DNA of 64,000 nucleotides from Yuukianura sp. NJ FZ-2021. Taxonomy: Eukaryota. Every line of letters begins with the position of its first letter. Position 1 is the first letter of the stretch. The notes under the pieces are model-generated. The model was not told the DNA's origin and searched no databases. It saw only the letters and a program-made list of their open reading frames with translations. The position numbers and the translations under genes were made by a program. This document shows, one piece after another, positions 6,894 through 63,800 of the stretch. The DNA lies in the NCBI GenBank assembly GCA_046563655.1, contig CM102285.1, positions 2,356,001 to 2,420,000 on the forward strand. Reading direction: 5' to 3'.

Positions 6894-9411
6894 TTAGAAC
6901 ATTACGAGCAGATTAATAACGTTTTGTAGTACGATGTCTGCGTAGAGTGTGAGGAGGTAGGCTTTCGAGTCGAGCACAAACAACTGGCCAAGTCTTACGT
7001 TAATTAGTTGCCTTGAACGCCAAAATTTGTAGTTATATTCGTTTCTGTTGCGCATGTTGTGGATTCCGGCCCATCTACACTTTATGGAGTTTTGGTGGCA
7101 AAGTGCTGCGAGACTCACACCCTCCGTCATAATGAAAATAATTACGGTTGTAGCCAAGACAAACATTTGCAGTAGGATGATGTACTTTCCCTTCAGCGAC
7201 ACAACAAAAGTGTATATAAATATAACCAGCATGACTTCGCAACAGCTTATTGCATACGCAACTGAGTTTGCAAAGAGGTAGTTGGCCTGATTGTTCATGA
7301 CTTGAAGATATGTGTATGTTAGACCGTGGTTGTGTTCCCCATCATTCATTTTGTCCCTTTCAAAACACAGCACAAATTATTGCAAGTGCAGAAAGGCTTT
7401 ATTTTATAACCAGAGTTGGTCTAAATTATTGCTTTATTTTTTTGCATTGCATTGTCTTTTAAGGCTTTGTTATGCTAGCATATAATTTAACATAAGCAAT
7501 AATAAATAAACCGGTTGTAAACCGCGCATAACGAAATAGCTCAAGCCAATGGATGGTTTTCCCCCAGCCGGGGAATGTGGGGGGTGGGTACTCACTCTTT
7601 TCCCCGTATTCTTCCCCGTTTCCCCTACATTCCCCACCATTTTCCACACTCACACGCCTCTCCCCGGGAGAGTGGGGGTGGGTTCCCCCCACTTTCCCGC
7701 CCCCCGGGGGAGTGGGGGTGTTCCCCAACTTTTTCGCTACGCACCCCAGGAAGCGCGGGTGTGTGTTCCGCCCACTTTCCGCCCCGGGGGAAATGGGGGC
7801 AGGTTCCCCCCACTTTTCCGCCCCCCCCCCCGGGGAGTGGGGGTGGGTTCCCCCACTTTTCCGCCCCCCCCCCCGGAGAGTGGGGGTGGGTTCCCCCTAC
7901 TTTTCCGGCCCCCCCGGGGGAGTGGGGGGAGGTGCCCCCCACTTTTCCGCCCCCCCTTAGGGGGAGTGGGGGGAGGTTCCCCCACTTTTCCGCCCCCCCC
8001 CGGGGGAGTGGGGGGAGGTTCCCCCACTTTTCCGCCCGCCCCCCCCCCGGGGGGAGTGGGGGTGTGTTCCCACCACTTCGCCCACCTACGATGCCTATGT
8101 GAATGGGCAAGGTAGCAGGCTTGCCCATTTACAGTGTATGTTAATATGTTGACCTTTGTTCCCTGTTTTGACCCCCTTGGAGGGGTCAGAGACCCATGGT
8201 TCATATACCAAAGTTGTTCCCCTCAATAAGAGGAACAACTTTTGTCAAGGTCATTTTCCCGGTTTTATATTGAAAAGGTCAATGACCTTGACCTTTGACC
8301 CAGTAAAAGGTCACGGATCCGGATGATATTCAATAGTGAACAGGTCCGGGTCATGACATGGTGACTGGTGAAAGCCCGGTTGAAATTGGTCCAGTAGTTT
8401 CTGAGATAATAATTTGGGACAGACAGAGAGACAGACAGACAGACATGAATCAGATTATTAAATAGCTTTCGCTATTTAATAATGCGAATAAATTTTTGCT
8501 TATACGTAAGATCAAGCTTGATCGTACAAATAACCAAAAATTTATTCGAAAACAGTCCCTTCGCCGTCTTACGAGGAAAAAAATCAATATTTTAGAGCTA
8601 AATTTTAACCGCTTACAACAAAAGGTGAAGCCACAGTCGCGTTGAGTTCAAGTACAGTGAAAGCGTATTGACAACCATCAGCGCTGCAAATAGAGCATTA
8701 AGAACAGCCAGACTAAAGAATGTTTCCATGACTAAAATTATTAGTCCAGTGATGACTTGGCTGTCCACTCCGAAACAATAATGCACAACTGTTCCATACA
8801 GACGGTATGTTGACTGAGTTATGCAAGTATCGGAAAATAAAAAGAATGTTACAGTTGCAGGTACGATAATAATACGCGTGTAGTCAAATATCTTTGCCGT
8901 AACTTTTGGCGCCGATTCGTAGCCGTCTTTTTCTTTTGAAAATATTGGCAATCCATAACGCTTGTCTGAAAAATTAAACGTGAAGTTAATAAATACGGGT
9001 CAAGTGCAAAATTAATTTTAAAACACTCAAATACTTAATTGAAAAAACTATAGTATTACGAAGGTCATTGGTTAATTTGAAGAAAGTTGAGATGACGCTA
9101 TAAATTTCTGCTCCAAATGCAAAGTTCCAGAGTTGTATTCCAGTCACAAATGAGATAATTATGATCATTCCAGTCATAAAGAAGAGCTCTTTGTAGTTAT
9201 TTTGTACCAGCAACGCAATGATACAATACAATGCAATTGACATGAAATTTAATACTAGACAAATAGCTGTAAGCACTTTGGTAGTATATTCGTTACAACT
9301 TTTTGCGGCGATCTCACCCTTAATTAGAACCACTCGAAATGACGATGCCCTCCACTTGCAACCATCATTGAACACCTTCAATGAGTACTTCCAAGTAGTG
9401 TAAGACAACAT
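6894..9411 (-). CDS. 7TM chemoreceptor-like family A, copy 3 (MLSYTTWKY type), 3 exons, intron 2 enlarged by an insertion
   Basis: ORFs 8986-9411, 8613-8951 and 6894-7373 are colinear with the paralogs. Confidence 0.75.
7560..8090. repeat. GC-rich ~40-bp minisatellite (approx. CCCCCCGGGGGAGTGGGGGTGGGTTCCCCCACTTTTCCG) inside an intronic insertion
   Basis: About a dozen tandem units with variable G/C run lengths in an otherwise AT-rich window. Confidence 0.9.
8100..8470. mobile_element. Probable non-autonomous Helitron/DINE-like repeat with a (GACA)n seed; related pieces near 325-450, 9840-10000 and 33990-34113
   Basis: GTTTCTGAGATAAT...GACAGACAGAGAGACAGACAGACAGAC; the motifs TTGACCTTTGACCC and GGATGATATTCAATAGTGAACA are shared with 9841-9895. 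Confidence 0.45.
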
Positions 9412-29793: not shown

Positions 29794-31180
29794 ATGTTGT
29801 CTGAAATTTCTTGGAAGTACATATTGAAATTCTTCTACGATGGCTCCCAGTGGAGGTTGTGCACATTTCAACTAATTTCTGTTGAAGGTGAAATCGTTCC
29901 ACAGAAACGCAACTACTACTCGGCTAGAATATTTACAGCTATTTGTATTCTCTTAAATTTGATCGCTATTGTAGCATATTCTGCTACTGCGTTACACGTT
30001 CGAAATGACTACACAGAGCTAATCTTCATTTCTGGAATTATCTTACTCGTCTCATTTTTAACTGGAATGCAGCTATGGTACTTTGTATTTGAAGAAGAAA
30101 TTTACGGCATCATCTCAACCTTCCTCAAAATCAACAATCAACTCCGTAAGTGCATTTACCTTTTGAACTTTGACAAGGTCAATCTTAATTAGTACTTCTA
30201 CTTTTTCAGATAAAAGCTACGGATTGCCGGTAATTTCACAAGGAAAAGACGGATATGAACCAGCGCTAAAAATCACGAATGCGATATTCTCATATACGCG
30301 CATTTTTATTGTTCCTGCAATGGTATCATTTTTCCTAGTCTCCGGTACAAATATAAGCCGAGCAACATATATTATATATGAAGCCGTTCTACGGTTTTGC
30401 TTTGGAGTGGAGAATTGGATCATCGTTGGCGGCACAATTTTCATAACAGAAACACTTTTTGCATTGACGTTTATAAATGCTACCTTTGCATTATATGTGT
30501 TTACTTGTAGCGCTTTAATGTACACAAATACAACGAGACTTTGGCTTCAACATTTAACGTAAGTGCAGTAGAAATGATAAGCACCAAATCTGTCCGAAAT
30601 TTTGTTTGATACCATTGTATTACTAATTGCATTACCAACTTCGCCAAATGTTCGAAAAGCAAACCTATGCGCCATAATATTGCTTTTGCAATAATAATGT
30701 GTACTTTGTTGAAGGGAAAGGGTGATTAATGTCGTGGAAAACAAGGATAGTCAAACGTACGAATGTCTCCAAGTTATGAACAAGTATGCGAACCACGTCT
30801 TTGCAAATTTGGTTGCATATGCAATATGCTCCTGCGAAATCATGTTAATTATATTCATGTATACTGTAGTCAAGTCGTTCACAGCAGAGTACATCGTCCT
30901 GCTACAACTATATATCTTGTCTATTGCCGTAATTGTGTTTATTCTGACGGAAGCAGTGAGCCTAGCAGCACTATGTCACCAAAACTCCACAGAGTGTAGG
31001 CATGCCGGAATCTACAATCGACGCAAAAGTGGAGAATACAGTCGCAGGTTCTGGCGTTCAAGACAATTAATCAACGTCAGAGTTGGACAGTGGTTTGTGC
31101 TGGACTCCAAGGCTTACCTCATCACACTCTATGCAGACATCGTCCTGCAAAACCTCATTAACCTCCTCGTTGCGTACTAG
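29794..31180 (+). CDS. 7TM chemoreceptor-like family A, copy 4 (MLSEISWKY type), 3 exons
   Basis: Closest paralog of 3682-5566, in inverted orientation; ORFs 29674-30192, 30170-30562 and 30722-31180. Confidence 0.75.
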
Positions 31181-32059: not shown

Positions 32060-33403
32060 ATGTTGTCTTACACTACTTGGAAGTACTCATTGAAGGTGTT
32101 CAATGATGGGTGCAAGTGGAGGTCATCGTCATTTCGAGTAGTTCTAATTAAGGGTGAGATCGTTGCAAAAAGTTGTGACGAATATAATACCAGACTCCTT
32201 ACAGCTATTTGCCTGGTCTTAAATTTCATGTCAATTGCATTGTATTGTATCATTGCGTTCCTGGTGCAAAATAACTACAAAGAGTTCATCTTTATGACTG
32301 GCATGATCATAGCACTCTTAGGTGTGACTGGAGTACAACTCTGGAACTTTGTATTTGGAACAAAAATTTATAGCATCGTCGCAACCTTCTTCAAATTAAC
32401 CACTAAACTCCGTAATATAGTTTTTGTATAATATTAGAATTTTTGTGTAAATTAAATTGCCGCCTGAACAGTATTAGTTTCATTGACTTTACGTTTAATT
32501 TTTCAGATAAACGTTATGGACTACAATTATTTTCAAAAGAAAAAGATGGATACGAATCGACGCTAAAAGTTTCGGCTAAGATATTCGACTACACGCGTAT
32601 TATTATCATACCGACAGCAGTATCATTCTTGTTATTTTCCGATACACGTATAACCGAATCAATTTACCGTCTGTATGGAACAGTTCTTCATTATTGCTTT
32701 GGAGTGGACAGCCAGGTCTTCACTGGAATAATAATTTTAGTGTTGGAAACATTCTTTTGCCTGGCTGTTCTTAACGCTCTGTTCTCAGCGCTCATAATTG
32801 TTAATACAATTTTACTGTACATGAACTCAACGCGGCTTTGGCTTCATCTTTTGCTGTAAGCGGTTAAAAATTTTAGCCTAAAAGTTTAAGATTAAACCAA
32901 AGTCTTTTCTGCACGTTGGAATAATTTGTGCTATCTTTTGAAGGGAGAAAATGAATGACGAGGACCACAACCACTTTTTAACGTACTCTTGTCTTCAAGT
33001 CATGAACAAGCAAGCCAACTACGTATTTGCCAATTTAGTTGCATATGGAATAAGCGGTTGCGAAATCTTACTGGTTATTTTTATGTACTCGTTGGTTTCG
33101 TCACTGGAAGGAAAGTATATTGGCATGCTCCAACTGTTCATTTTGTCTACCAGCGTAATTATTTTTGTTGTGACGGAAACAGTGAGTCTAGCAGCACTTT
33201 GCCACCAAAATTCCATAAAATGTAGATTAGCAGGAATTCACAACCTACGCTACAGGAAGTATCACCGCAAATTTTGGCATTCAAGGCAACTTATTAGCGT
33301 TAGAGTTGGGCAGTTGTTTGTCTTGGACTCAAAAGCTTACCTCCTCACACTCTACGCAGACATCGTACTACAAAACGTCATTAACCTTCTCGTAATGTTC
33401 TAA
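32060..33403 (+). CDS. 7TM chemoreceptor-like family A, copy 5 (MLSYTTWKY type), 3 exons (approx. 32060-32411, 32507-32855, 32944-33403)
   Basis: Intact frames with GT-AG boundaries; inverted near-copy of 1038-2381, including about 700 bp of 3' flank. Confidence 0.78.
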
Positions 33404-38345: not shown

Positions 38346-38824
38346 TCGAGTAAAGTAATTACTTTGTACATTTTTTTACAATAAAACATGAAACAAATAC
38401 TCATTTAATGGTAAATTTGTACACGAGAAACATGAATATATCTTGCGATTGTGTCCACTCTATGCTCAACTATTACCAATTCATGAGTGACCTTTGCAGT
38501 TCACAAGCTTGTTACAAAAAAAAGAATGTTAGTGGAACGGTTAGATACGTGTCTGTTTTGTGCTATTTTCTTTTCGGATTTCATTAACGTGGTGTAATGT
38601 GCAAGGAAACAGTGGAACCTACTTAGGTTCTTTTTAAGTAGAAAATTAAATTTCGAATTCCAAAATTGGATTAGGGCAATGCCTGATTCTATTTGTAGAA
38701 AAGCAGCGATGGTCTGATCAAACTTTCACCTTGTCCAAGCATGGGCCTGTAATGTCTCAAATTCAATTTGGAAAATTAGCAGTGAAGTAATAAAAAATAG
38801 AGCATGACTCAGCATCGCAGTAGC

Positions 38825-38997
38825 AGTAGGAGGGTAGAGGGGACTTTCACGCCAAATCAACCTTTGGACCCATAAGGTTTTAAAGCAACTGGCGTGAGAT
38901 CCCAAAAGTCGGATTAATTAAGACTAATTAAGACATTCTTCAAGACTAATTAACACTTCCGTTCAAGACTAATTAAGACTAATTAAATACTTCCTGT
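38825..38997 (+). repeat. Left terminal inverted repeat (173 bp)
   Basis: Base-for-base reverse complement of 47897-48069; contains repeated AAGACTAATTA units and an internal TCACGCCA / TGGCGTGA inverted pair. Confidence 0.95.
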
Positions 38998-39799: not shown

Positions 39800-40495
39800 C
39801 TATGGAGTGGTTAGAACACCATGAAATATGATGCTGCCAATTACATCAGCACTGTACGGCTTCATTCGAAGTTCCTCGAGCGTAGAATACATGCTACGTG
39901 TAGAACTCTCCATAACAAAGGTTCTTCGACGGATCTGAAATTGTTGGTGTTTTGTCAAATCCAGCAAATGTGACGTATATTGTTTCCGAATGTGTTGATT
40001 TGTTTGTGGACAGCAGCAATTAGGACGATCGAAAACACTTCCATTACTTGGAATTTCTTTATTTCGACACCTACTCAAAGCCAATTCGCGTAGATCCTTC
40101 AAGTAGCTTCGTTTTGCTTCATGGATAACTCTATCCAACGATTCGTCTAAATACGAAGTTGGAAATGATTTTAGGAGTCTTCCAACCAAACGTGGAACTT
40201 GATCCAGCTTAACAGCAGCAGCGCCAGACGCTCGAATTAGGAATACTTGATCATCTTCTCGTATGCAATGAATATTCGCTTCCCTGATTTCCCGGATTGA
40301 TTCTACCTGGCTCGCTTTCTTACGATTTTGAGCCAGAATTTTTTCAAAATGCGGTAGGTCAGCCATCATTTTCCCCGCTCCAATGTATAGAACAACTAAC
40401 TTCTCAACTACCGTCGTCAGTTCCTCCAAAGTAAAAGTAATGGAAAAAGATGAATTTCTGACTTCAATACCGGATGTGGACGAAAGTACTTCCAT
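39800..40495 (-). CDS. Element-encoded protein of unknown function, 231 aa; paralog of 40781-41497
   Basis: Intact ORF; shares EELxTVVExLV, LPHFEKxLxQNR, YLxESLDxxIHExKRxY and LDxTKHQQ with the neighbour. Confidence 0.8.
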   Translation of the reverse strand: MEVLSSTSGIEVRNSSFSITFTLEELTTVVEKLVVLYIGAGKMMADLPHFEKILAQNRKKASQVESIREIREANIHCIREDDQVFLIRASGAAAVKLDQVPRLVGRLLKSFPTSYLDESLDRVIHEAKRSYLKDLRELALSRCRNKEIPSNGSVFDRPNCCCPQTNQHIRKQYTSHLLDLTKHQQFQIRRRTFVMESSTRSMYSTLEELRMKPYSADVIGSIIFHGVLTTP

Positions 40496-40780
40496 GTTGA
40501 GCTAATTTAAACTCGCGTTTCCTTCTTACGACCAGTTAAGACTCAACTAATTGGGACTAATTCATTTTCTTTTTGCTTTGTTAGGAGGAGCTAACTCCCT
40601 CGCCCCCAGGACTATGAATCTGATTGGCTCTTGTACAAAAAACGTTTTTGGAACTTACTTTGACCATGTGATTAGGGGGAATTTAATGCCACCCACGTTC
40701 AGGGGGGAACGCAGTGCTACCTATACAGTTTAACCATCACCATCCATTTACTATTGTACTAAAATTTACTATTGCCAAGA

Positions 40781-41497
40781 ATGGAATCTACCCTACCGGA
40801 AGTGTTTCTAAGCATGGGACTCATTGGCGTCAGGATTTCTGGAAGTTCAATTATGTTCTCATCCGAAGAACTACCAACGGTTGTAGAGGAGCTAGTCAAA
40901 GCATATATTGAAGAAGGAAGAATGATTAAGCATCTTCCACATTTTGAGAAGCTGTTACTACAGAACCGTAACAATGCAGCAAAGCAAAATGAGTACTCGC
41001 CGGATGAACCACTACTGCCGATTCATTTTATCAAGGACGCATCATCTCGTGTCATCCTTATCCGAAGCGGCGCGCCTGTTATGATCGATTTGGACCATAT
41101 TCCTCTGCTGGTTGAGTCACTTCTAAAATGTGGATGTTTTCCTATCACATACTTGGAGGAATCTTTGGATATGCTGATTCATGAAACTAAACGCGGCTAC
41201 ATCGAGAAACTTCGCAATGAGGCGTTCCGATCCTGTCACAACAAATTGGAAATCGATCCTTGTAGGAGTATTTTTGGCGAGTTCAACTGTTGCTGCACAA
41301 CAATTAATACATCAAACTACAGTCAACATGTACTGGACGTTACTAAGCACCAGCAAATGGAAATTAACAGATGGAAATGGGGAATAGATAGTTTCTATGG
41401 TAAGAGAGAACTTGCTGTACTTGAGAGTATTCGACTAGAGCATTATTCCAGTGACATAATTTGGAAAATTACTTTTCATGGTAAAAGAGATTGCTAA
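40781..41497 (+). CDS. Element-encoded protein of unknown function, 238 aa; paralog of 39800-40495
   Basis: Intact ORF from ATG at 40781; TATA-like CTATA near 40721; AATAAA at 41517. Confidence 0.8.
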   Translation: MESTLPEVFLSMGLIGVRISGSSIMFSSEELPTVVEELVKAYIEEGRMIKHLPHFEKLLLQNRNNAAKQNEYSPDEPLLPIHFIKDASSRVILIRSGAPVMIDLDHIPLLVESLLKCGCFPITYLEESLDMLIHETKRGYIEKLRNEAFRSCHNKLEIDPCRSIFGEFNCCCTTINTSNYSQHVLDVTKHQQMEINRWKWGIDSFYGKRELAVLESIRLEHYSSDIIWKITFHGKRDC

Positions 41498-41525: not shown

Positions 41526-42266
41526 TCAATTATTTCTGTACACAGTACATCCGACATCGGGAAATATATTATTACGGATTCTAAACCTATCATCCTGGGA
41601 TTGGTGCAGGTCTATAAATACATGACCATACGGTTTTTTCATAACGTCTTCATAGCACGATTCCAGAGCTTCGTTACGTTTTCCGTTTTTTGTTAGCTGA
41701 CGTCCGAAGCAGAGAACTTGAGAGACTTCTCGAGGATTTTTCGTGAAGCCTGGCAATTTGTAGTTATCGTTCGTTGTCCTTTCTCGAAGAAGTTTTGAGT
41801 GACGAAAATTATGCTCACATTCCTGTGGTGGCTCGTTCGAGTAAATGCTGAGGCGATATGCTTATTAGCACAAACTTCCGTTCGTCAAGTACGACGATGA
41901 GTGTTGTAAGGGCTCGCAAAATCGTCAGGTAATCCATAGTGAAATTTTTGGGATGTGACTTTTCAGATCCTTAAAAAATTCATTCTCCGGCTCTCCATAA
42001 CAATAAAGGATATCATTAATCGGAATATCAATCATTTCAAAACGTTGAAGGAGTAATTGCTTAAGAAGCGACGACTTCCCACTTTGGCTTGCTCCGCTAA
42101 TTGTCATGCAGAATGGCGCCTTTAGCCTATAATCAAAACACTCATCCGCTGTGGTATCACGATCCGCTGTAGTATTATCTTTTTCCTCATGTCCATGTGC
42201 AGTATATACATGGCGTTTAAGGTTATCCGAACGTGTGAACGTACTGTTGCAAACACTACAATCCAT
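41526..42266 (-). pseudogene. Maverick A32/FtsK-like DNA-packaging ATPase with N-terminal C2H2 finger, broken by several short deletions
   Basis: CSVCNSTFTRSDNLKRHVYTAH, then Walker A ISGASQSGKS; in successive frames FHYGLPDDF, Walker B LIVVLDE, SHHRNVSIIFVTQNFF, KNPRE and KPYGHVFIDL. Confidence 0.85.
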
Positions 42267-42329: not shown

Positions 42330-42480
42330 CTTTATATACACCACCACCACCAGTCTTGCTAGGAGGAGGAGGAGGAGGAGGAGGAGGAGGAGGAGGAGGA
42401 GGAGGAGGAGGAGGAGGAGGAGGAGGAGGAGGAGGAGGAGGAGGAGGAGGAGGAGGCACCACCACCACCACTATAAAACT
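42330..42480. promoter_or_regulatory. Putative bidirectional promoter (outward-facing TATA boxes around the AGG array)
   Basis: TTTATATA at about 42331 (TATATAAA on the minus strand, about 65 bp before the ATPase ATG) and TATAAAA at 42472 (about 50 bp before ATG 42521). Confidence 0.55.
42361..42456. repeat. (AGG)32 perfect microsatellite flanked by (CAC)n runs
   Basis: 96 nt of uninterrupted AGG; ACACCACCACCACC on the left and CACCACCACCACCAC on the right. Confidence 0.97.
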
Positions 42481-43009: not shown

Positions 43010-46000
43010 CTATTGTTTAATCACATCCTTATGTCCAAATGCTAATGTGTTAATTCTATCAACACCATATCGTTTCGTATCTAAACCGTTAAGAGCCCTT
43101 TTTAACGTAACTTCTGTGAAAATTCTATGCTCTACACTTCTAAATCCTCTCATCCATACACGAGTTTGAACATCTTCTTTAAGGACTTTCTCGAAATCTT
43201 CATACGCTATTTGGTTGTTGACAGCAGTTTTAGTTATTCCTTTGACTTTCTTCGTGTATTCGTCTTTGATGAACCAGCTGCCGTCAGTCTTCTTTTGGTA
43301 AATATTTTTCCCATCAAAGCCTCGGTAGACTTGAAGTTTCAAGGATCTAATGGTGTACATTTTTGGACGAGGGCAAACGACGTGAGTGACTACAGAACCG
43401 GCAGCTTCATCTTTGAATTTTCCCAAAACTTTCTTGTTTGTGGGATCGTAAAACTCTCCAAAAATGGGGTGATCGGACTCATATTCACTCATGTCATACA
43501 AGTCCTTGTCATGGAGCATGTCTTGATAAACGTCATCGGTTTGGATGTGATAGATGAAGGAATCTGAAATAAAAGTTTAAAGTTAGCTTCAGTTTGGATG
43601 TGATAGATGAAGGAATCTGAAATAAAAGTTAGCTTTAGTTTAAAGTAAGGATTGTACGACATTTACCTGTATCAGTATAAATAAGGCGGCACTTCTCGAC
43701 GCCGTATTTGGCTTGTATCGTATAATGATGTCGATACATGATGCTCTTTGCTAGCTCAAGCACTGTGACGCCCGTATATATTGGCTTATTTAAGGTGACT
43801 TGAAGTCTCCTCATCATAAAGATGCATGTTGACTCGTTAATTGGAATGACATTCTGGACGGTGGGTTTCTTGTTGTAGCGTAGAGCTTCTTCCATTGATG
43901 TAACGATACGAACGTTTTGACGCTTGCGAACTTGCTCGATGGTTTTGCCAAATGCGGAGTTGTTGAGAAGTTTCCAATAATCCTTTTCAAAGTCCGATGT
44001 AGCCCTTTTTCTCATTTCAGTGTTAAAGTCGATAAAATCCTTCATCCATGGTCTCTGATTGAAGGAAATTCCACGGTGAAGTTTTGTAACTTTAACTCCA
44101 AGCTTCAAGTACTCCATCAAAATTGCATGATGCAGAATATAATTCTTCTTATTGTTTAGATCTGCCACAAGTTTCTTTACTTTGAAAATTCCAGGACCTG
44201 TGTTGAGTTTTTCCGTCAATTGTAACTGGTGACTGGATAACTCCTTTTGTTCAACTGTACGACTAACTGGAGCTGGAGGAAAATCATTTAGCTTGTCATG
44301 CAATGAAGGATCAATTTCCAAATCCACTTCAAGCATGTATCCTTGTTCGTTGTCCATGATGAAATGGTTTTCTTGAAGTCTCATCAACTCCTGTTCAGTT
44401 AGCCAGCGGAATTGCCCAGTTGGAAGCGGAAGACTCATGCTTTTGCCCTAGTGAATAATTAAATGGTTTAGATAATAATTTTTCATAGACGTTGTTGAAT
44501 ACTTACATATAAGTTGTTGGCATCGATGTAGATGAGGTAACTTGATTCCTTTTCTGGATCGTATTCATCTCCCATGTACTTGTTGTTCGCTCTAGCTTCT
44601 CGCATTGATCCAACGCTAACGTATCCACCTAAAAATAAATGGATCAGAAAATGTCTACCATTTGTCTTGTAGGTTTTACCTCTAATAGCATGCTCCAGCC
44701 AACAATGCATGGTTGGATCTGTGATTAGTTCCAATTCCACTCCTGATTTCTTGAGAACGCAATCCATTGCCATCATAGGTAACGAAAAATAATGAGCCAG
44801 GTCCAATTCGTAAGCATCAAACATTATTTTTCGGATTCCCTCCATAACATCAGCCAGAAGCGATACATCTAGCCTGACGTATAAGTCATGCCAATCTCCC
44901 ATGTCTTGAATGTTGAAGTTCTTCCAGACTTTCTGAGCGTGCTCATACACCTTATCGTCAATGGGTGTCTCCGTCAAGTCATTGTAGAAATCTTCCTTTG
45001 ATGGTAGATTTTTGGTTTTGAAATCCTTGCAAGACTTCATGAGTGAATAAGGGTAAACACCCTTTTCGAAGAGAAGTTCAATGTCATCGTTTTGTGCAAA
45101 CTCTTGTCTGGTGATTGGAAATTTGGCATTGGGATCGGCTCGCATCACTTTCACTAATTTGTCCAAAGATTTCAGTGTAAATCCAAGACTGTCTGTAAAC
45201 CTCAGCTTGAAGGGTTTCTTCTGCCAGCGAGGTGGTTCTTCGTCCTCATCGAAATCATCGTGGTACGCAGGAACGATGCTCAGCGACATGTATTTTTCAC
45301 TGCTTTTGGGAATTACAGTGATATCTTTGATGATTCCATCCTGTCTGAGTTTTCCTGCAGATTGGACGATGAAGTGAACGTCGTAAGATGAAAAGTTGTG
45401 CATGAAGACGGGAAACTCCTTTTTGATTTGTGCTTGGAGGTTACAATCTTGGTGAGCCATTCCGATGTAGTTGAACGGTGGAAGATGCGAATGGTGTCGT
45501 ACTTTGGTTCCATCCAATATCTTCTTGCAGAAACAACAATTTTTTCAAGAGCAGCAGCACTTCTTTGTGCTGGAGTCAGATTTAGCATGTCTGGAGCAAT
45601 TTTTTCGTAGTACCGAACTTCCTCTTCGAGTGTTTTGGAGTACTCAGTAATGCTCTGAATGAATTTGGCAGCAACGTCTTCATCATCGCTGGTGATATGA
45701 TAATATTCACCATGTCGTCGTTTTCCATTGAAGTCCACGCAAACCCATGCATATCCACATGGCTTGTGTAGGTGAGTGCAACATTTATTAACAGGCTGAA
45801 CTGGTCTTCCACGTACCTCTTCTTTGAGTTGTCGGCGCTCCTCCTCTTCTATAGTTGTTGGATTAAACTTTGGGAGGAAAGCTTCAAAGTCAGCGTAAAA
45901 TCGAAATGGTGTGGGCTGAGTTCTGTCCCACTTGTTGAAAGTCAATTTGTTGTTGTCAGTTGGATATACAACTTTTTGAAGATCCAAGGAAGCGCAATAC

Positions 46001-47307
46001 TTGATGTGCTGTTGAAGAGTGTGAGCTGATTGGAAATTGGAGAGACAGTTGCGACAAATATGCTTGACTTTGTGATCATTTGGCGCTCTCATTAAGGCTT
46101 CAAGATTTCGAATCAGAATGAAGTGTGCGTTGTTTTCTTGCATAAGACACATCAAGTCGATGTGTATTTCCTTCGGCTGTTGGGAATTGTACAGTATTGA
46201 GATCTTGCTTTGTATAAAATTGAATGATTCAATTTTGCTCAACTTCGGTGGCTGTGGTCCATCCATGTCATAACCAAGAATGGTTATAGAAATGTTTGGG
46301 TTGAGTTCTTCAAAGTGAGGGATCTGATCCAAAGTCATCGGAAAATGGAGTCCTTTAGTGTTCAACTTGTATTCATTTGGCTGGTATGTTTTCACAAGCT
46401 TGTCAATGCGGCACCTATGGTTGTTTTTCCCGACTGGTATGCCACCGATTTTGTCATGGGCGAGCACTGACCAGAGGAAGCATTTGTTGTGGGAATTGTC
46501 CATTGAGAATTTGCTGTTGTTGATGTTAAGCAGAACTTTTTGAGTTGATAGTGGGTACGGGGTGTCCATGTATGTACCAATCTTGGTGAATTGATATTTT
46601 GAAGTGACAAATCCAAATTTCCGAATCGAATCCAGAGTCCAGCCGCTGCCCTCATTGGTAAAGTCTTCAATCTGGTCCGACATTTGGCTGCACATGACTG
46701 ACCAAACTTTAGGTAGCATGTTTGCATTGAAGACAAGGTGTCGAAATGAGGTGAATCCAACATCCTTTGATTCTACCGTTCCATCTCCGTGCGTTTTGGT
46801 GAAGTGACACCCCAAGGTGAAAAATATCCTTAAGTTCTTCCATCTGGAGATGTCTTCTCGGATGACTTCATAGGATGATAGTTTAACATTCGTAAAAAAG
46901 TCTCTCTCGTCGACACCTTCACCACATGGAAATGTATCAAAGTCGGCCATGTACTTGCGACTCATTTTTAGAGATTCCAGCACTAAAGTCACGGATATAG
47001 GATCGGTTGATATTCCTCCGCCATCTTGAATGCTAAAGTCTGGATGAGTGGTGTAGAAATGCTCTTGAAGCTTATTCCGACAATCAAATGGTATACCACA
47101 TGTATAGCAAAACAAATGGCGAAATTCCTGTAGAATACTCTCGTTCGTGACATCGTAACCTGGTGGTGCTGGTTCAAGGCAGTTTTTATGGACATGGTCG
47201 AAATGTAGTTTTAATATTGCTCGAGAAGCAAACCCTTGAGCGCACAGTATGCAATTAAATTGTTTACTTGATGGTCCAACAATTGGTGTTCCTTGGCGCT
47301 TTGACAT
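43010..47307 (-). CDS. Protein-primed family-B DNA polymerase (pPolB) with N-terminal C2H2 fingers and an HNH-like insert; 3 spliceosomal introns (44629-44679, 44448-44506, 43564-43666) and one frameshift near 45540
   Basis: Exo motifs YADFEA, FMHNFSSYDVHF, YVRLDV; EKGVYPY; after splicing IRGGYV, YIDANNLYGKSM, KLLNNSAFGKT, YTDTDSF, LGKFKDE, RPKMY, KVKGI. 4298 nt - 213 nt of introns + 1 nt = 4086 nt, i.e. 1361 aa plus stop. Confidence 0.92.
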
Positions 47308-47630
47308 TGTTTAGGACAATAAGATTCTTAGGACAATAGAACTGAGTTGTGTAAAGACTGAAAGTCTCCGTAAAACTTAGCGACAATCTTAGGACAATAG
47401 AACTGAACAGTAGTTGCGCAGAGACTGAAAGTCTCCGTAAATGTGTGGTATTATATACCCTCTCGACACCTGCCGACCCCCTAAGCCGACCCCCAAAGAA
47501 TTTGTGGGTCAGGGTATAGCCTTTTTTCGTGTTCCTCCTCCTCCTCCTCCCACCCGCCAGATATTGTTAACGGACAAAGGTATTAATTAAATAACAGGAA
47601 GTGTTAATTGTCACAGGAAATTAGGATTCT

Positions 47631-47882
47631 GCCAGAGCCGACCCCCTAAGCAAAAGCCGACCCCCCAAACATTATTGGTTTAGCTTTGATTCCCACATTT
47701 TTTCTTCCTCCTCCTCCATGGTCAGCGGACAAAGGTACTAATTAAATAACAGGAGTGCCAGAGCCGACCCCCTAAGCAAAAGCCGACCCCCCAAACATTA
47801 TTGGTTTAGCTTTGAATCCCACATTTTTTCTTCCTCCTCCTCCATGGTCAGCGGACAAAGGTACTAATTAAATAACAGGAGT
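47631..47882. repeat. Subterminal tandem duplication, 126-bp period (2 near-identical copies plus a degenerate copy at ~47470-47600)
   Basis: GCCAGAGCCGACCCCCTAAGCAAAAGCCGACCCCCC... at 47631 and 47757. Confidence 0.9.
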
Positions 47883-47896
47883 GTTAATTAAAGTCA

Positions 47897-48069
47897 ACAG
47901 GAAGTATTTAATTAGTCTTAATTAGTCTTGAACGGAAGTGTTAATTAGTCTTGAAGAATGTCTTAATTAGTCTTAATTAATCCGACTTTTGGGATCTCAC
48001 GCCAGTTGCTTTAAAACCTTATGGGTCCAAAGGTTGATTTGGCGTGAAAGTCCCCTCTACCCTCCTACT
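47897..48069 (-). repeat. Right terminal inverted repeat (173 bp)
   Basis: Exact reverse complement of 38825-38997. Confidence 0.95.
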
Positions 48070-49270
48070 GTAGCAGTGGAATTTTTTCTTTTGTAGAAGC
48101 ATGCATAGTTCATGATGCAAGTGAAAGCGATCTGCAACTTTTCATTTCAAATTGATGTTCGCTACATTTTCCCTCTTCTGGTTCTCATCCTTCTACTGCT
48201 TGCTCGCTCTCTGGCTGGTTTGGGAGACGTTGCGACGACTTCGCTTCCTTCCTGAAAGGCTTTGCCAGTCTAGGCCAAGCTGCTTATTTTCGTCAACCAA
48301 ACGCAACAAAAATTTTTCTTGCCTTCACTGAGTAAATTTTATGTCTTTCTAATTTAATCTATCGGTAATGGCAGGAAAAAAACAATACTCTTTAAATTCT
48401 CTACAACTTTTTGTTTCGGAGTTGGCCTATTCATGCTCAATTTTCACTGAATCATCTGCCATCGTCAAACCAAAATAAATAAAATTAGTAAAATTATAAG
48501 TCAGCTTTCGCTACTTCATAAAACCAAATTTTTATATAAAAAAAATTGTTCATTTTGATGTCGGGTTTGATGTTGAAAAAAATTAAAAAGGCAATGTAAA
48601 AAGCCACGTACCGAATCTATGACAAGATTTTGATTCGACGATTTTATTTCCGAGGGTTATCTAATTCTGCTTACCGGCACTAACTGTTTTCTTTTCTAGA
48701 CTGAATCAGACGCTCGCTTTCTCTTTCGTTCCACATCTACTATAAAAAGAGCAGCATCTAGTGCTTTTCAGAACACAAGAGCAACCCTAACTTTACTGAA
48801 ATCAGTCTAAAACCTACGAGATCCCCACTTTCACTTCTAGTGCGTCGTTTTCAGTTTCTAGTTAACAAAGCCTTACATTTTGGATTTACCTCACACAAAA
48901 GACTTTTGTCACATCATCCAACTTTCACTTCAACCTTGTATCTACTAACGATAAGTAAGTTTAAGCTTCTTTTCCATCTTACTTTTTCATTCTCCAAACA
49001 TTTTCAAAAGTTTTGAGTTTTTGAGTTTTTTTTCAAAGCCCATCTTCTGGTGCATTGTGCACAAATCAATGTCAGTCATGAGCAAAGTGAAGCATGTTGG
49101 TTTGTTTATTTTGTGGAAAAGGTGATCCAGACACACGCTCCGTCTTCATCAAGGCCTTTTCCTACAAGTGGATGGCCTTTGTGGCGTCCTGAGCAGAAGC
49201 AGTAGTATCAAATTCACTAGAAGGGCCCTACCTAAAACCTAGAATTTCCTAGAAATCTCTAGCACTGGTT

Positions 49271-57528: not shown

Positions 57529-60500
57529 ATGACAATCATCCGCCATGACAGTGCCAAAAACGGAGAAGATACACAGGTAAAGTAAATCATAACATCACAA
57601 AAAGCAATCAAAATTATGTAAAGTTCATTTGGTTTAAAGTTTCTGTAAACTTGTGCTTTATGCTACGTTTTCAACAATAGACTTAAAACTTTATTTTTCA
57701 AATTAGTAGCAACGTGCTAAATTGATTACTTCTAAAGCTTCAAGCTAAGTCGTTAGCAAAAAATCTTATCTTTTTGTTTGGAAATTTGCAGGTCGATGAT
57801 GGACGGAAACTGCGTTACCCCAAATCCATTTTCTTCATCGTCGTGACGGAATTTTGCGAGAGGTTTAGTTACTACGGAATGCGAGCTGTTCTGACCATTT
57901 ACATGCGGAATGTCCTCAACTTCTCAGATGATCTCAGTACCACCATCTACCACGTTTTCCTGTTGTTGTGTTATGGCCTACCACTTTTTGGCGGGATTTT
58001 GGCCGATTCGTACATTGGCAAATACTGGACCATCGTGTACCTGTCGTCTGTCTACGCACTTGGCAACGTCGTCCTCACTGCCGCGTCGATTCAACCGCTT
58101 CACATGCCTATCGAGTAAGTTTTCGATGCACATTTTAAAACCAGCGGCAAATTCAAATTTCGAAATTATTAATTTGTTTGCCAGGGCCCTCAGTCTTACA
58201 GGACTGCTGCTAATGGCAATTGGAACTGGAGGAATCAAGCCATGCGTAGTAGCGTTGGGCGGAGAACAATTTAAACTTCCCGCGCAAGAAAAACTTTTGA
58301 AACAATTTTTTGCCGTTTTTCTGTTTGTTGTAAGTATTGGCAACATGGTAGCTACTGTATCTACTCCCATGCTCAGAAGAGACATTTCGTGCTTTGGGGA
58401 AGACACTTGTTATCCCCTGGCATTTGGTGTTCCTGGAATTTTAATGGCAGTTGCCATAAGTGAGTTTATGAATTCTAATAGAAAAGTTAAAATGAAAATG
58501 AAAATTGTAAGGTCATTCCAAGGTCACCTCACAAATGTCATTTTTTTTAACTTCTAGGTGTGTTCATTGGTGGCCGTTGTTTGTATAAAATCAAACCACC
58601 GGAAGACAACATTTTTGTACGCGTCATCAAATGTGCTTTGGTACGTTCATGTGAAATCAAAAACTCAATTCCAAAAATAATGAAATGAATGTTACAAGTT
58701 TTTAATTCTTGATTTCTTAAATCAGTTTGCGTTGAAGGAGAAGATGACGGGAAGCGGTGAAGCGAAAAAGCACTGGCTGGACTATGCCAGTAGTCGCTAT
58801 GACGACAAACTCGTCAGCGATAGCAAAGGCCTCTTCCGTGTCCTGGTGTACTACTTACCAGTTCCAATGTTCTTTGCCCTCTACGAACAACTCGTAAGTC
58901 AAGCGTGGTTGTTTTACAACAGAAATTTGTAATTTCATTTTCCATTGTTCGGTGCACACTAAGGTAAATTTTAAATTTTAATGCTTTTTTGTATGTCAAG
59001 GGGTCACGTTGGACATTACAAGCTACACGGATGAATGGGTATCTCGGAAATGGATTCATGATCAAACCAGATCAAATGCAGGTAACTTTGGCACAATGAA
59101 TCATAAAATTTAAAATGCATATTTCTATTACTTTACTTACAATTTTATTTTTGAATTCAGGTAGCAAATGCCATTTTGCTATTCATCTTCATCCCGTTTT
59201 TCGAAACTGTGGTGTACCCTATCTTCCGCAAATGCAATCTTCTGAATCGCCCTTTACAAAAAATGGTTGTCGGCGGCGTCCTTGCAAGTTTGGCCTTCGT
59301 TTCAGCAGGAATCGTCGAAACAAACATAGAAGTAACAAACAATGATTCATACACACGTGATTTCAAAATTTTCAAAATTAGCAAGCGCTAATTTTGAATT
59401 ACCATACATGGTATACCCAGTAGCAAAGGTTAATGAGAGTGGTTCATTTTTTTCTTTTCCAGAATTCGGTATCCCTCCAACACTCTAATGGAGACAACTA
59501 TCTAAACTTCATCAACACGATCTCATGTCCCGTCCATGTTCAAACTCAAGGGCAATTACATGACCTCCACAAGGCTGAGGTCACAGCATTTCTGCCAATG
59601 ACAATTCCAGCAAGGGGAAACACGATTTCACCGTCATTGCCACCCAATCAAAGCATGGTTGGCCTCCACTTCCGTTTAGACGAGGGCTGTGCCCATTCGT
59701 TTGGTAATGATGAGATAACATCCTGGAAAGGTCAGGTGAGCATTGACCTTGGAGTTCACTCCGTTGTCATTGCACAAGTTCAAGGAAAAATGGCAATCAA
59801 CGTTATGAATTCACCCGAAGACCTTGCAAAGTCTAAAGAAGGAAATGCAAAACTGAGGTGAGTCATTCATGACTCAAAGTAATTGCGTAATATGTATGTA
59901 AAAATTACTTTATTTTTATTCATACCTCATTGAATTGCAAAAATTTACTCCAAATTTTGTTTTGTTGCAGAGTTTTATTGACAAGATCACAGCTTCTTGG
60001 AAAACAAAATACCAAAAGACCAATAGTAATTGATGTTTTGAAAAATTCCATCCCAGCGTACCATGAAAATTTGAATTCCGCCGATGACTCTTCATCCTTT
60101 GTGCAATTTACTTCTACTTTTGAAGTGGAACCGAACCAGTAAGTCCAAAAAAAATGAAATACAGTCTTAGCCCTTTCATTTCGTAAACCGGTTTCGGCAG
60201 GAAGCTTGAATTTGAAAAAAAAAAAACCAAGATGGACTGACTGAAAAGAACGAAATTCATCTTTCCAAGCTTTATGTGCATTCGCTAAATTTTTGAAACA
60301 TGGATTTTTTTTTCATTAGGTACGAAATTGGAATTGTGTGGGAAACTTCTGAAAATGACACAGTCACTACAGTACTGCCAACACAAGTTAAAATGGGAAC
60401 TGGAGGCAGTTACATACTAGGCATTTACGAGGCGCTCAATTCGTCAACTGAATTTCAGGTATGATTTTTCCAAAAAAAATTAACCCACGTTAGATTAGGG

Positions 60501-61720
60501 ATGCTTAACTTCCGTGTCTGGAAACGGAACTTTTGCCCGTTTCCGCTTCGTTTCCGTTTCCAAGTATTTTAGAAACGAAAAATCCGTGTCGTTTCCGTTT
60601 CGTTTCCGTTTCCACTTGGCATTGGAACCGTTTCCTAGTAGGAAACGACACGGAAACGGATTAGACGTCACATTATATTTTTTGTGTAGTTCTTAACCAA
60701 AATTGTGACCCAAACTTGAAATATAACAGTTCTCTGGCAGAGTTTTTATCATTGTTATCTTTCAATTGTTCTCTCTCTTATCTGACGCACGTTGCGTCAA
60801 CTTTTAGTGTGATTTTTACTGCAGCAGTGACAGATAAGGCCCTCGGAGAATAGAAAATATATTAAGAGGTGACTAATGGTTCGGAATTAGACTATGTTTT
60901 GCAGTAAAAACTGCCTTCGGGAAATTTTGACCGTTTCTGTTTCGTTCCGTTTCGTTTCCGTGTCGTTTCCTTTCCTTCCATTTTTGAGGAGTTCCGTTTC
61001 TTTTTCGGAAAAATCCGTTTCCGTTTTCTCGTGGAAACGGAACGGAACGGCACATGAACACCCCTACGTTAGATTAATTTAGATTATATAATATTTACAT
61101 TATATTAAAAGTTAATCGCAAAAGTTTTACAATTCCTTAATGTTCTTTAGGAGGAGCTTTTGACGCTTACCAAAGAAAATCAAATACACATACTCTGGCT
61201 ACTTCCGCAGTACGTGTTAATAGCATGGGCCGAAGTTTTATTCATAATTTCTGGAATGGAATTCTCTTTTACAGAGGTGCGTTTGAATTCGTTTTATTTT
61301 GTAGTTTGATTCCAATTTATTGAAAGTCATTTGTAAACTTAAAATTAATTTTCATTTTTCTTTGCAAATGTTTAGGCTCCAGAAAGTATGAAAAGCGTAG
61401 TTCAATCTTGTTGGCACTTAGCAAACGCAACAGGGAATGCCATTGTGATCATATCCGCTCAACTTAATATTAACCAGGTAAGTAGCAGAAAGTTTTTCAT
61501 TCTCTTTAACCCTGTTTTCACACGCTTAAACTTTAAATGTTTGGGAAAATATTTTCTGAATTAGATTTCCGAATTTTTTGGATTTGCTACTCTTATGGGA
61601 ATAGATACCTTAATTCTAAGTCTAATGGCCATGCGCTACAAGTATGTTGGCCAAGGGAAGAGAAGCTCAAGCGTATCTCACCCTACTGAAGCCACAAATG
61701 AAATTGAAAGCAAATTTTAA
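57529..61720 (+). CDS. Proton-dependent oligopeptide transporter (SLC15/PepT, yin/opt1-like), multi-exon
   Basis: YPKSIFFIVVTEFCERFSYYGMR, GTGGIKPCV, CYPLAFGVPGILM, GSRWTLQATRMNG, IKPDQMQ, WLLPQY, EAPESMKSV. Confidence 0.92.
60496..61066. mobile_element. hAT-type MITE in a PepT intron
   Basis: Termini TAGGGATG...CACCCCTA; perfect 8-bp TSD CGTTAGAT (60488-60495 and 61067-61074); many subterminal AAACGG/CCGTTT motifs. Confidence 0.85.
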
Positions 61721-62129: not shown

Positions 62130-63800
62130 ATACTGCTTTAATTGTGCGGATACACAAAGTTAAAAACCGTATTGAATATAATCTTGTGGAATCTTGCAAA
62201 ATCTTGTGAAATTGGAAGAAATGATGTTGGTTTGAATGAGGCCAACCTAACTTAACGCTGAAAACCACACTTTTGATTTTCTCCAAGCTTCGAAGATTCA
62301 TGGATTTACTCTATGCATTTCAAAAATGTTGGAAACAAGAACCATTAATTTAAATTAAAATGCTTATGTAAAGGTTGTTGACATCAACGTAAGCGAGGTG
62401 ACTACCCGGCTTCCTGGATCATATTCGTCGCCCATATAACGATTTAGTAGTTAGCGTTTCTCTCTTAAATCCAACACCAGCATTGCATTACCGCTTATAA
62501 TGAAAATTTATTAGACACCTTTACTTTCCAAATCTAACTTTCTCGCTTCCAAAAAACACCAAAGAAGAAACAACAAACAGATCAATTACCTGTTAGTCAA
62601 AAATTTCATCAGCACTGGCAGAATTACGACAGCTTTGAGCAACAAAATGTTGCGTACATCCGTTTTCAACGCTTCCGTCATGTAAAAGGTCATCTACAAA
62701 AAGTACCAAAGGTTTATTAAACCTTAATCTATGTAATAGTCAATTGTAAATGAAACAAATTATTCCTTTGCTAACATCATCAAAAGAAACGTTTGATGCG
62801 AGTGGATTTGCGAACGTTTTCTCCAAATTTTCGATTATATAACTGTTGAAAATTTTCTGAAGTTTATTATTTTGTCACTCCTCTGTAGCAGCTTTCAGTG
62901 CTGAGCAATTTACCAAGCCTTGGATTTCAAATTTTTCAACCATGTCTGGACGTTGATTTTTCTGTAAGGCATGCACTCAATCAAATTGATGTATTTTCAC
63001 AAATAAATAATTTAACTTTATTTAATTTGCAATCGCCTCCACCTTTTCAAGTTGCCATTCTGAAGTGCAAGCTGCACTTCTGCATGCTGCATGTCCAGTT
63101 TTTCCACGAGCGTTCCCCTCGGTATAGAAACGTCGGCGTCAGTGATCCAGCCTGCCTGGGGCAATCTTTTCATAAATGTCTACTTATTTTTGAAAAGTCT
63201 TGCAAAATCAGAGACTGCTCTCAACAAGGCAAACTGCATCAATAATGTCGGTAGCGTGATAGAATTCACCCTGTCGACGTTTCCCTTCACAGTCAACACA
63301 CACCCATGCATTTGCAGAAGAGTCTTGGGTGCTAACACGACCCGCGTTTCTTTGGACTTCTTTTCCTTTGACCCCGTCATTCGCACTTTGTGTCGCTGAC
63401 GACAAACTTCATGTTCGCAAGTGGAATCGAACTTGTTCAGGAGCGCTTCAAAATCGGCATAAACGCAATCCAATCGTTTGAGGTCTTGCTCGCCGTTAAT
63501 TACCGTATAACTAGGATTTTTAAGATGTTTTAAACGTATGCTTAACGGAAAGGGTGTCGCTTTCTTAAACGCTTCACAATCGTGGTTTCTGGCTTCTTCA
63601 GCGGCTTGTAGATGCTAGCGTCAGTTCCATCGAAGAATACAGCGATACAGTGGACGGGATAAAGCGTTTTGGAAATCTTCGGTCTCTAGACGCTAAGAAT
63701 TGCACATTTTCCGACGTACTCACCTTTTGAAATATCCGTAACGTCGTTGGTATCGTATCCAAACTGCTCTTGGGTTACCTTGCTATTACCACAAAAGTCC
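62130..63800 (-). pseudogene. Decayed relic of a second, divergent Maverick pPolB
   Basis: Fragments colinear with the intact pPolB: YADFEALL, AWVCVDCEGKRRQGEFYH, NRYMGDEYDP, AYVDVNNLY, SKSMNL; many stops and frameshifts; boundaries approximate. Confidence 0.75.

Follow-up and report, generated by a model that had tools for sequence, protein, structure and literature searches.

A 57-nucleotide gap in a polymerase relic lies at the codon of an intron in a diverged Maverick/Polinton-type polymerase gene of Yuukianura

We analysed a 64,000-nucleotide (nt) stretch of contig CM102285.1 from Yuukianura sp. NJ FZ-2021 (GenBank assembly GCA_046563655.1, positions 2,356,001 to 2,420,000 of the forward strand; hereafter the window), which carries two minus-strand sequences related to the gene for a family-B DNA polymerase of the protein-primed type. 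The better-preserved copy lies at 43010-47307 and is located 18 kilobases (kb) from the other sequence, a relic at 62293-63461 that is probably what truncation and decay have left of a Maverick/Polinton-type gene for a protein-primed DNA polymerase. Our subject is a 57-nt gap in the relic and its relation to a short intron in the better copy; in motif names a slash marks the junction at which coding sequence is, or is proposed to be, interrupted. The recognizable parts of the relic are as follows.

63145..63461, minus strand: 5′ block of the relic, with the YADFEAL (first exonuclease motif) region, AWVCVDCEGKRRQGEFYHAT and ...YEKIAPG, interrupted by stop codons and shifts of frame; matched by tblastx, in three collinear segments, to 45897-45580.
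62368..62481, minus strand: exon remnant equivalent to GYVSVG...YIDANNLY, in three different frames; found by tblastx, family hidden Markov model (HMM) and tblastn.
62311..62367, minus strand: putative fossil phase-0 intron in polymerase motif A, 57 nt, ATAAGC...GCATAG, with AT as donor; its position equals that of the 59-nt intron 44506-44448.
62293..62310, minus strand: SKSMNL, the first six codons of the next exon and the end of detectable homology; assessed by a hexapeptide chance test.

The relic is collinear with the better copy in tblastx, with 63461-63372 matching 45897-45808, 63309-63250 matching 45750-45691 (75% at the amino acid level), 63237-63145 matching 45672-45580 and 62475-62359 matching 44614-44498, and at the nucleotide level the match is limited to one 55-nt stretch (63257-63311 to 45698-45752, 78%). 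A family HMM matches the relic at 62415-62365 (E 4e-4), and the relative P0005 matches it at 62481-62368 (E 4.7e-4), where the reading frame changes twice, from AGVGFKRE (62481-62458) to NRYMGDEYDP (62444-62415) and again to AYVDVNNLY. No homology to the exonuclease part (about 290 residues) was detected between 63145 and 62590 with a 66-sequence family HMM, with tblastx or with 171 related proteins (the best 150 of an exon search and 21 further ones), and none was found downstream of SKSMNL by tblastx or by tblastn with the relatives. The only polymerase motifs that survive in the relic, which extends towards the end of the window, are YADFEAL and DVNNLY-SKSM.

The better copy retains far more of the gene, with the following features.

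43010..47307, minus strand: protein-primed family-B polymerase gene in four collinear coding blocks, ATG at 47307-47305 and TAG at 43012-43010; tblastn with full-length relatives.
44629..44679, minus strand: predicted intron J1, 51 nt, GTAAAA...TTTTTAG, phase 1 in IRG/G, in frame so that it reads through as an open reading frame (ORF); contiguous in relatives.
44448..44506, minus strand: predicted intron J2, 59 nt, GTAAGT...CACTAG, phase 0, NNLY/GKSM; frame change across the segment.
43564..43666, minus strand: predicted intron J3, 103 nt, GTAAAT...TTTCAG, phase 1 inside YTDT/DS, with a duplicated acceptor inside; sequence boundaries and tblastn blocks.
45539..45547, minus strand: break of the polymerase reading frame where six A stand in a row; frames and a conserved C-x-x-C; no intron fits.

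Searches by tblastn with full-length relatives, for example P0007 (1341 amino acids), recover the coding blocks 47151-45562, 45508-44507, 44447-43668 and 43567-43022, and the exonuclease and polymerase motifs follow one another in the usual order (YADFEAF, NFSSYDVHF, DANNLY-GKSM, KLLNNSAFGK, YTDT-DS and KVKGITK). Since the frame changes across the 59-nt J2, its removal is needed to keep the reading frame; at the J1 codon, too, relatives are contiguous.

The gap in the relic and J2 occupy the same place in the gene. On the minus strand of the relic, AYVDVNNLY (62394-62368) is followed by the 57-nt gap (62367-62311) and then by SKSMNL (62310-62293), and the equivalent order in the better copy is YIDANNLY (44530-44507), the 59-nt GTAAGT...CACTAG (44506-44448) and GKSMSL (44447-44430). 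The flanks align on both sides, and the gap falls at the same codon and in the same phase as J2, phase 0 after the Tyr of D-x-N-N-L-Y, so that the central observation of the original prediction holds down to its exact coordinates. The length of the relic gap is in frame, yet stop codons lie inside it. We assessed SKSMNL by asking how often a hexapeptide scoring at least as well against GKSMSL occurs anywhere in 200 nt downstream, in any frame; 12 of the 5000 shuffles contained one, as did 2 of 524 real windows of 200 nt from elsewhere in the 64-kb window, and neither count demands a matching offset (57 versus 59 nt). A chance origin of the flanking matches around the gap is unlikely.

Related sequences show these flanks joined. 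The exons that end in NNLY and start with GKSM are directly adjacent in 117 of the 171 related proteins; in 20 others the upstream part is unmatched by BLAST, most of these printing an N-L-Y-type motif directly before the junction, and the remainder comprise 17 proteins that start at the NNLY/G junction, 16 that are cut inside the exon and one with a large gap. At the DNA level, 80 metagenome loci (35-45% identity) were compared: the NNLY/G flanks are contiguous in 69, the 11 others are at a contig edge, frameshifted or have a short upstream exon unmatched by BLAST (largest offset 16 nt), and an intron-sized gap at NNLY/G occurs in none of the 80. Because the flanks are contiguous in relatives, the relic gap and the 59-nt segment are intervening sequence at a homologous codon.

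We next considered the age of this shared interruption. When 105 codons of the relic and the better copy are aligned, the fraction of mismatches is 0.30 at first, 0.28 at second and 0.57 at third codon positions. The mismatch lies mostly at third positions, and the copies therefore appear to have diverged as working genes under protein-level constraint, which would make the intron older than the split of both copies unless later copying brought it from one lineage to the other. Similarity between the two intron sequences (57 and 59 nt) is confined to regions near their ends. Both the homologous codon and the codon-position pattern support, for this intron, the earlier proposal that the introns predate both copies, and the further proposal that they are not the mark of a single domesticated host gene agrees with the position of the better copy between perfect terminal inverted repeats. 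These repeats bound a 9.25-kb element.

38824..38997, plus strand: 174-nt terminal inverted repeat at the left end of the 9.25-kb element; 47897-48070 is 100% complementary to it.
47897..48070, minus strand: right terminal inverted repeat of the 9.25-kb element, 174 nt, perfect partner of the left repeat.
41540..42266, minus strand: packaging-ATPase-like gene with an N-terminal C2H2 zinc finger, frame-broken; E 2e-16 to a relative from metagenome locus L010, stops mid-gene.

The sequence runs ...GCAGTAG at the left repeat flank and TAGCAGT... at the right, and only TAG is directly common to both ends. In the ATPase-like gene the middle part, with Walker B and SHHRNVS, is in other frames and a stop occurs at 41927-41925; the frame is broken at least three times within about 200 nt, even though the terminal repeats of the element are identical. 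Among 25 ORF pieces lying inside the pair of terminal repeats or adjoining it, Pfam found no rve integrase, and tblastn of seven integrases from related loci (E<=0.1) found none in the whole window, a search whose sensitivity is limited for diverged or intron-split genes. For a capsid gene, the ORF pieces gave no Pfam or PHROGs match and the capsid gene of a related locus, L037, found nothing in the window by tblastn; for a protease, the ORF pieces likewise gave no Pfam or PHROGs match, no protease-specific query being used. The element had been called intact, which overstates its condition: with one frame break in the polymerase gene, at least three in the ATPase gene, and integrase and capsid genes not found, it appears to be a defective, reduced copy.

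Relatives establish what kind of polymerase this is. Used as a query against 1.84 billion representatives, the exon at 43635-44447 found 9923 proteins at E<=0.001 and 1191 at E<=1e-30. The four polymerase coding pieces of the window themselves gave no Pfam match at E<=0.01, and a profile search of solved structures with the polymerase returned nothing; two relatives, P0001 (26.2 bits) and P0024 (48.9 bits), pass the curated cut-off of 25.8 for PF03175 and are linked to the window exon at E 6e-82 and E 4e-55, respectively, and it is through them that the window polymerase can be placed in the Pfam family. Many polymerase relatives contain an Endonuclease VII-like insert. In eight related metagenome loci (L028, L042, L018, L023, L010, L072, L070 and L060) the polymerase lies beside rve integrases, and in locus L037 it lies beside a double-jelly-roll capsid gene (E 1.6e-49); because of these neighbours we take the family to be a true Maverick/Polinton one.

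Signs of introns also occur among relatives of the window polymerase, where the evidence on close relatives consists of protein calls and is hence indirect. Seven of the 171 proteins (P0043, P0045, P0082, P0151, P0152, P0153 and P0169) have an exon end of TDT, G and unrelated residues, resembling the window sequence read through its GT donor at YTDT/DS, and in P0001, P0151 and P0154 the first residues, directly before GYVSVG, correspond to the tail of the IRG/G intron when it is read through. A start at the conserved Met after NNLY is enriched in the TDT+G proteins (4 of 6 versus 10 of 126, Fisher p 0.001, in a count that leaves out 39 of the 171 proteins with one junction undetermined). In a whole-exon tree, the window groups with P0001, P0151, P0152, P0153 and P0154 with support 0.966. 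Farther away, P0043, P0045 and P0082 are ORFs the size of one exon, with the conserved Met after NNLY as their start and TDT+G as their end, and they belong to three distant clades with contiguous sisters, a pattern that hints that the same two intron positions recur widely. A tentative extension, which we rate as doubtful, is that the NNLY/G and YTDT/DS introns are old among the Maverick polymerases of animals, occurring in several deep clades with many losses, and that polymerase elements with terminal inverted repeats but without capsid and integrase genes, such as the 9.25-kb one described here, are a nuclear, intron-bearing offshoot of virus-like Mavericks.

The explanation we consider probable is that both polymerase lineages share an inherited short spliceosomal intron that was carried through DNA-based copying. 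Elements of this kind would be copied DNA to DNA, so that an intron gained in a gene of a nuclear-transcribed element would pass to every daughter copy, and the host spliceosome would remove it from the messenger RNA. The intron would already have been present in the common ancestor of both lineages, which then diverged under selection on the protein. The relic copy would have died later, its donor decaying to AT while frameshifts and stop codons accumulated, and would also have lost the exonuclease part and everything past SKSMNL. From the sequences we infer both the time of gain and inheritance rather than copying between elements.

Several observations weigh against this explanation. The relic stretch ends AT..AG, outside the GT..AG rule of spliceosomal introns, and it is by position that it is called an intron; splicing in either copy is likewise predicted from sequence. 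The relic lineage appears related to the better copy and long separated from it on the basis of 105 codons, the relic being too short and decayed for a tree. The wide family, moreover, is mostly intronless as sampled: at each of the two codons NNLY/G and YTDT/DS, 69 of the 80 metagenome loci are contiguous and none shows an intron-sized gap, and 14 of the 22 longest related loci hold one uninterrupted polymerase ORF of 1067-1395 amino acids. A metagenome scan found only more distant, intronless relatives, and scans of viral contigs and genome contigs with a close-clade alignment found no relatives. Closer to the window, the sub-group nearest to it (P0001, P0151, P0152 and P0154) and P0002 are contiguous at NNLY/G. 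P0155, which is nearest to the window in a tree of the C-terminal-half exon (74% identity), is contiguous at YTDT/DS, as are P0006, P0162, P0163 and P0002 of the same 10-member clade (support 0.94), the source of these contiguous records being either DNA or spliced transcripts. Intron presence among close relatives thus appears patchy. The original prediction of an intron-bearing Maverick family is therefore sustained in part: some relatives have intron-type ORF boundaries at IRG/G and YTDT/DS, whereas the close clade is patchy and most members of the wide family are intronless, the very finding that the prediction had named as speaking against it.

The same patchiness argues for a different history, in which the intron came to be common to both copies through gene conversion or recombination between diverged elements, or was gained twice at the same site. 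Contiguity at NNLY/G in the P0151 group and P0002, and at YTDT/DS in P0155, P0006, P0162, P0163 and P0002, would fit such a history, as would the Met-start, TDT+G-end ORFs of three distant clades (P0043, P0045 and P0082) with their contiguous sisters, and copying of the intron between elements by recombination may have taken the place of simple inheritance. A recent conversion fits poorly with two intron sequences that are alike only near their ends, and the codons flanking the intron have diverged as much as the rest of the gene; the exon side of the junction, TAT/GG, is unlike the usual exon-junction consensus. We regard conversion, recombination and double gain, taken together, as unlikely.

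Two further explanations were considered. If both copies were host polymerase-derived genes or pseudogenes rather than transposon copies, their introns could have been gained after domestication, as the host-like size and GT..AG ends of the introns and the failure to find integrase and capsid genes in the window might suggest; the perfect 174-nt terminal inverted repeats and Polinton-type ATPase remnant around the better copy, its frame break, and the rve integrases and double-jelly-roll capsid gene beside polymerase relatives all point the other way, and we consider domestication quite improbable. Alternatively, the relic could end at AYVDVNNLY and be followed by unrelated DNA, with SKSMNL a chance match. 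Only six residues follow the gap, nothing is found beyond them and the donor is not GT, but the chance test (12/5000 shuffles and 2/524 real windows, counted anywhere within 200 nt) speaks against this, the offset of 57 versus 59 nt matches as well, and K-S-M after the motif is common to the relic and the better copy as against W-A-M or Y-A-M in most relatives. We give this last possibility very little credence. Inheritance of the intron from a common ancestor of both copies remains the explanation we prefer.

A second intron, equivalent to J1 at IRG/G, had also been proposed for the relic.

62494..62589, minus strand: candidate IRG/G intron remnant, 96 nt, GTAATT...TATAAG, unproven; boundary strings present, upstream exon homology not found.

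The proposed strings exist, GTAATT at 62589 and ...TATAAG ending at 62494, 96 nt apart. Beside 62590, neither tblastx nor tblastn with the 171 relatives nor the 66-sequence family HMM detected a counterpart of ...LEHAIR, with which the upstream exon ends. Projection from the better copy puts the exon start 5 nt away from the candidate acceptor AG, after which a TAA stop comes in the AGVGFKRE frame. With the upstream exon not detectable, this intron cannot be anchored, and we were unable to confirm it.

The frame break in the better copy can be localized closely. From the ATG (47307) the incoming frame stays open as far as 45548, that on the far side of the break becomes open past the TGA at 45547-45545, and a conserved C-x-x-C, which in relatives stands 10-14 residues before V-R-H-H, starts at 45538. 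The four coding blocks total 4082 nt with a remainder of 2, and one frame break is therefore required, at the six-A run, which may be a mutation or an assembly error. An intron as the cause was rejected, as the interval from the stop at 45547-45545 to the C-x-x-C at 45538 leaves six bases; programmed frameshifting is not supported either, the A run being, by inspection, out of the classical slippery-heptamer register for the incoming frame. Farther downstream in this minus-strand gene, a 53-nt tandem duplication (43536-43630) takes in the J3 acceptor and some 30-odd bases at the start of the last exon. The J3 region consequently has two TTTATTTCAG acceptors, 53 nt apart, and splicing to the upstream one would cause a frameshift and a premature end of the protein.

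In size, the polymerase introns appear host-like: gaps between tblastn exon blocks of a host PanK4-like gene in the window measure about 59, 112-118 and 74 nt, against 51, 59 and 103 nt for the polymerase introns. Introner-like repeated introns were considered and rejected, the three introns and the relic gap being single-copy in the 64-kb window.

Other sequences lie within the 9.25-kb element. Two diverged paralogous ORFs of 233 and 244 amino acids stand in divergent orientation at 39800-40501 (minus) and 40763-41497 (plus); LPHFEK(I/L)L and C-C-C motifs occur in both, and Pfam and PHROGs gave no match to either. A long G-rich/C-rich triplet run at about 42370-42480, read as poly-Gly or poly-Leu by strand, separates two divergent C2H2 zinc-finger ORFs. 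Two tandem copies of a 126-nt unit (99% identical, 47630-47881) lie in the interval from the polymerase start to the right terminal repeat, and they and their neighbouring DNA are full of GACTAATTAA-type motifs.

The remainder of the window is animal-like DNA with a GC content of about 0.33-0.44 and host genes with short introns; the best named match of the PanK4-like gene is to Daphnia (52%). Five paralogous ORFs of about 155-170 amino acids (1038-1550, 3682-4149, 6894-7376, 30713-31180 and 32942-33403) share the motifs ...CLQVMNK...LAALC...LYADIVLQNVINLLV and look like the last exon of a tandemly expanded host membrane-protein gene family. A GC-rich segment at 7521-8222 has long overlapping ORFs on both strands with Pro/Gly-rich repeats. 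At 60455-61073, short overlapping ORFs on both strands with K/R/E/T/F repeats (KRKR, ETE, FRF) suggest that a simple repeat, tandem or inverted, separates the host genes from the relic.

Taken alone, the relic is an ordinary transposon fossil, and DNA transposons with intron-containing genes are well known. Introns in a core replication gene would mean that this Maverick lineage is expressed via nuclear transcripts and the host spliceosome, and that it has been in intron-processing hosts long enough to fix introns, which would fit a transposon-like life better than a purely virus-like one. Intron positions are rare changes and could mark lineages in this family, in which protein trees resolve poorly. 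Any survey that takes uninterrupted ORFs as the sign of an intact Maverick would miss or mis-score intron-bearing lineages, and prokaryotic-type gene callers would cut intron-bearing polymerases into exon-sized pieces, as seen among the metagenome proteins here.

A literature search brought up no Maverick polymerase reported to have spliceosomal introns at conserved positions; some key papers and supplements lay outside its coverage, and an earlier description is possible. The comparisons that follow refer to the passages available from each source. Intact vertebrate Mavericks are described as having intronless ORFs, in agreement with Kapitonov and Jurka 2006 (PMC8097293), and the core genes of a nematode Maverick are described as intronless, introns being placed in cargo genes (bioRxiv 10.1101/2022.07.12.499685). 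The nematode polymerases pPolB1 and pPolB2 (PMC10748475) resemble the present family in being protein-primed, with exonuclease and polymerase motifs and, in some, an inserted nuclease-type domain, comparable to the Endonuclease VII-like insert of the relatives found here; they differ in that only integrase-linked polymerases were kept in that study, whose available passages do not mention spliceosomal introns. Introners have been reported inside Polinton-like (eupolintoviral) proviruses of dinoflagellates (PMC12166617), and these integrated Polinton-like elements likewise have spliceosomal-type introns that travel with element DNA, but there the introns are repeated, mobile and found in protists, whereas here they are single-copy in the window, in an animal genome, and at the same codon in diverged copies. 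Maverick/Polinton elements are given as 15-25 kb with 5-10 ORFs (PMC6431247), compared with 9.25 kb and undetected integrase and capsid genes for the element described here. The closest known system is the self-synthesizing Maverick/Polinton transposons (polintoviruses) of animals, which the element resembles in its polymerase family and in the terminal inverted repeats and frame-broken Polinton-type ATPase remnant around the better copy, and from which it differs in the three short GT..AG introns of its polymerase gene.

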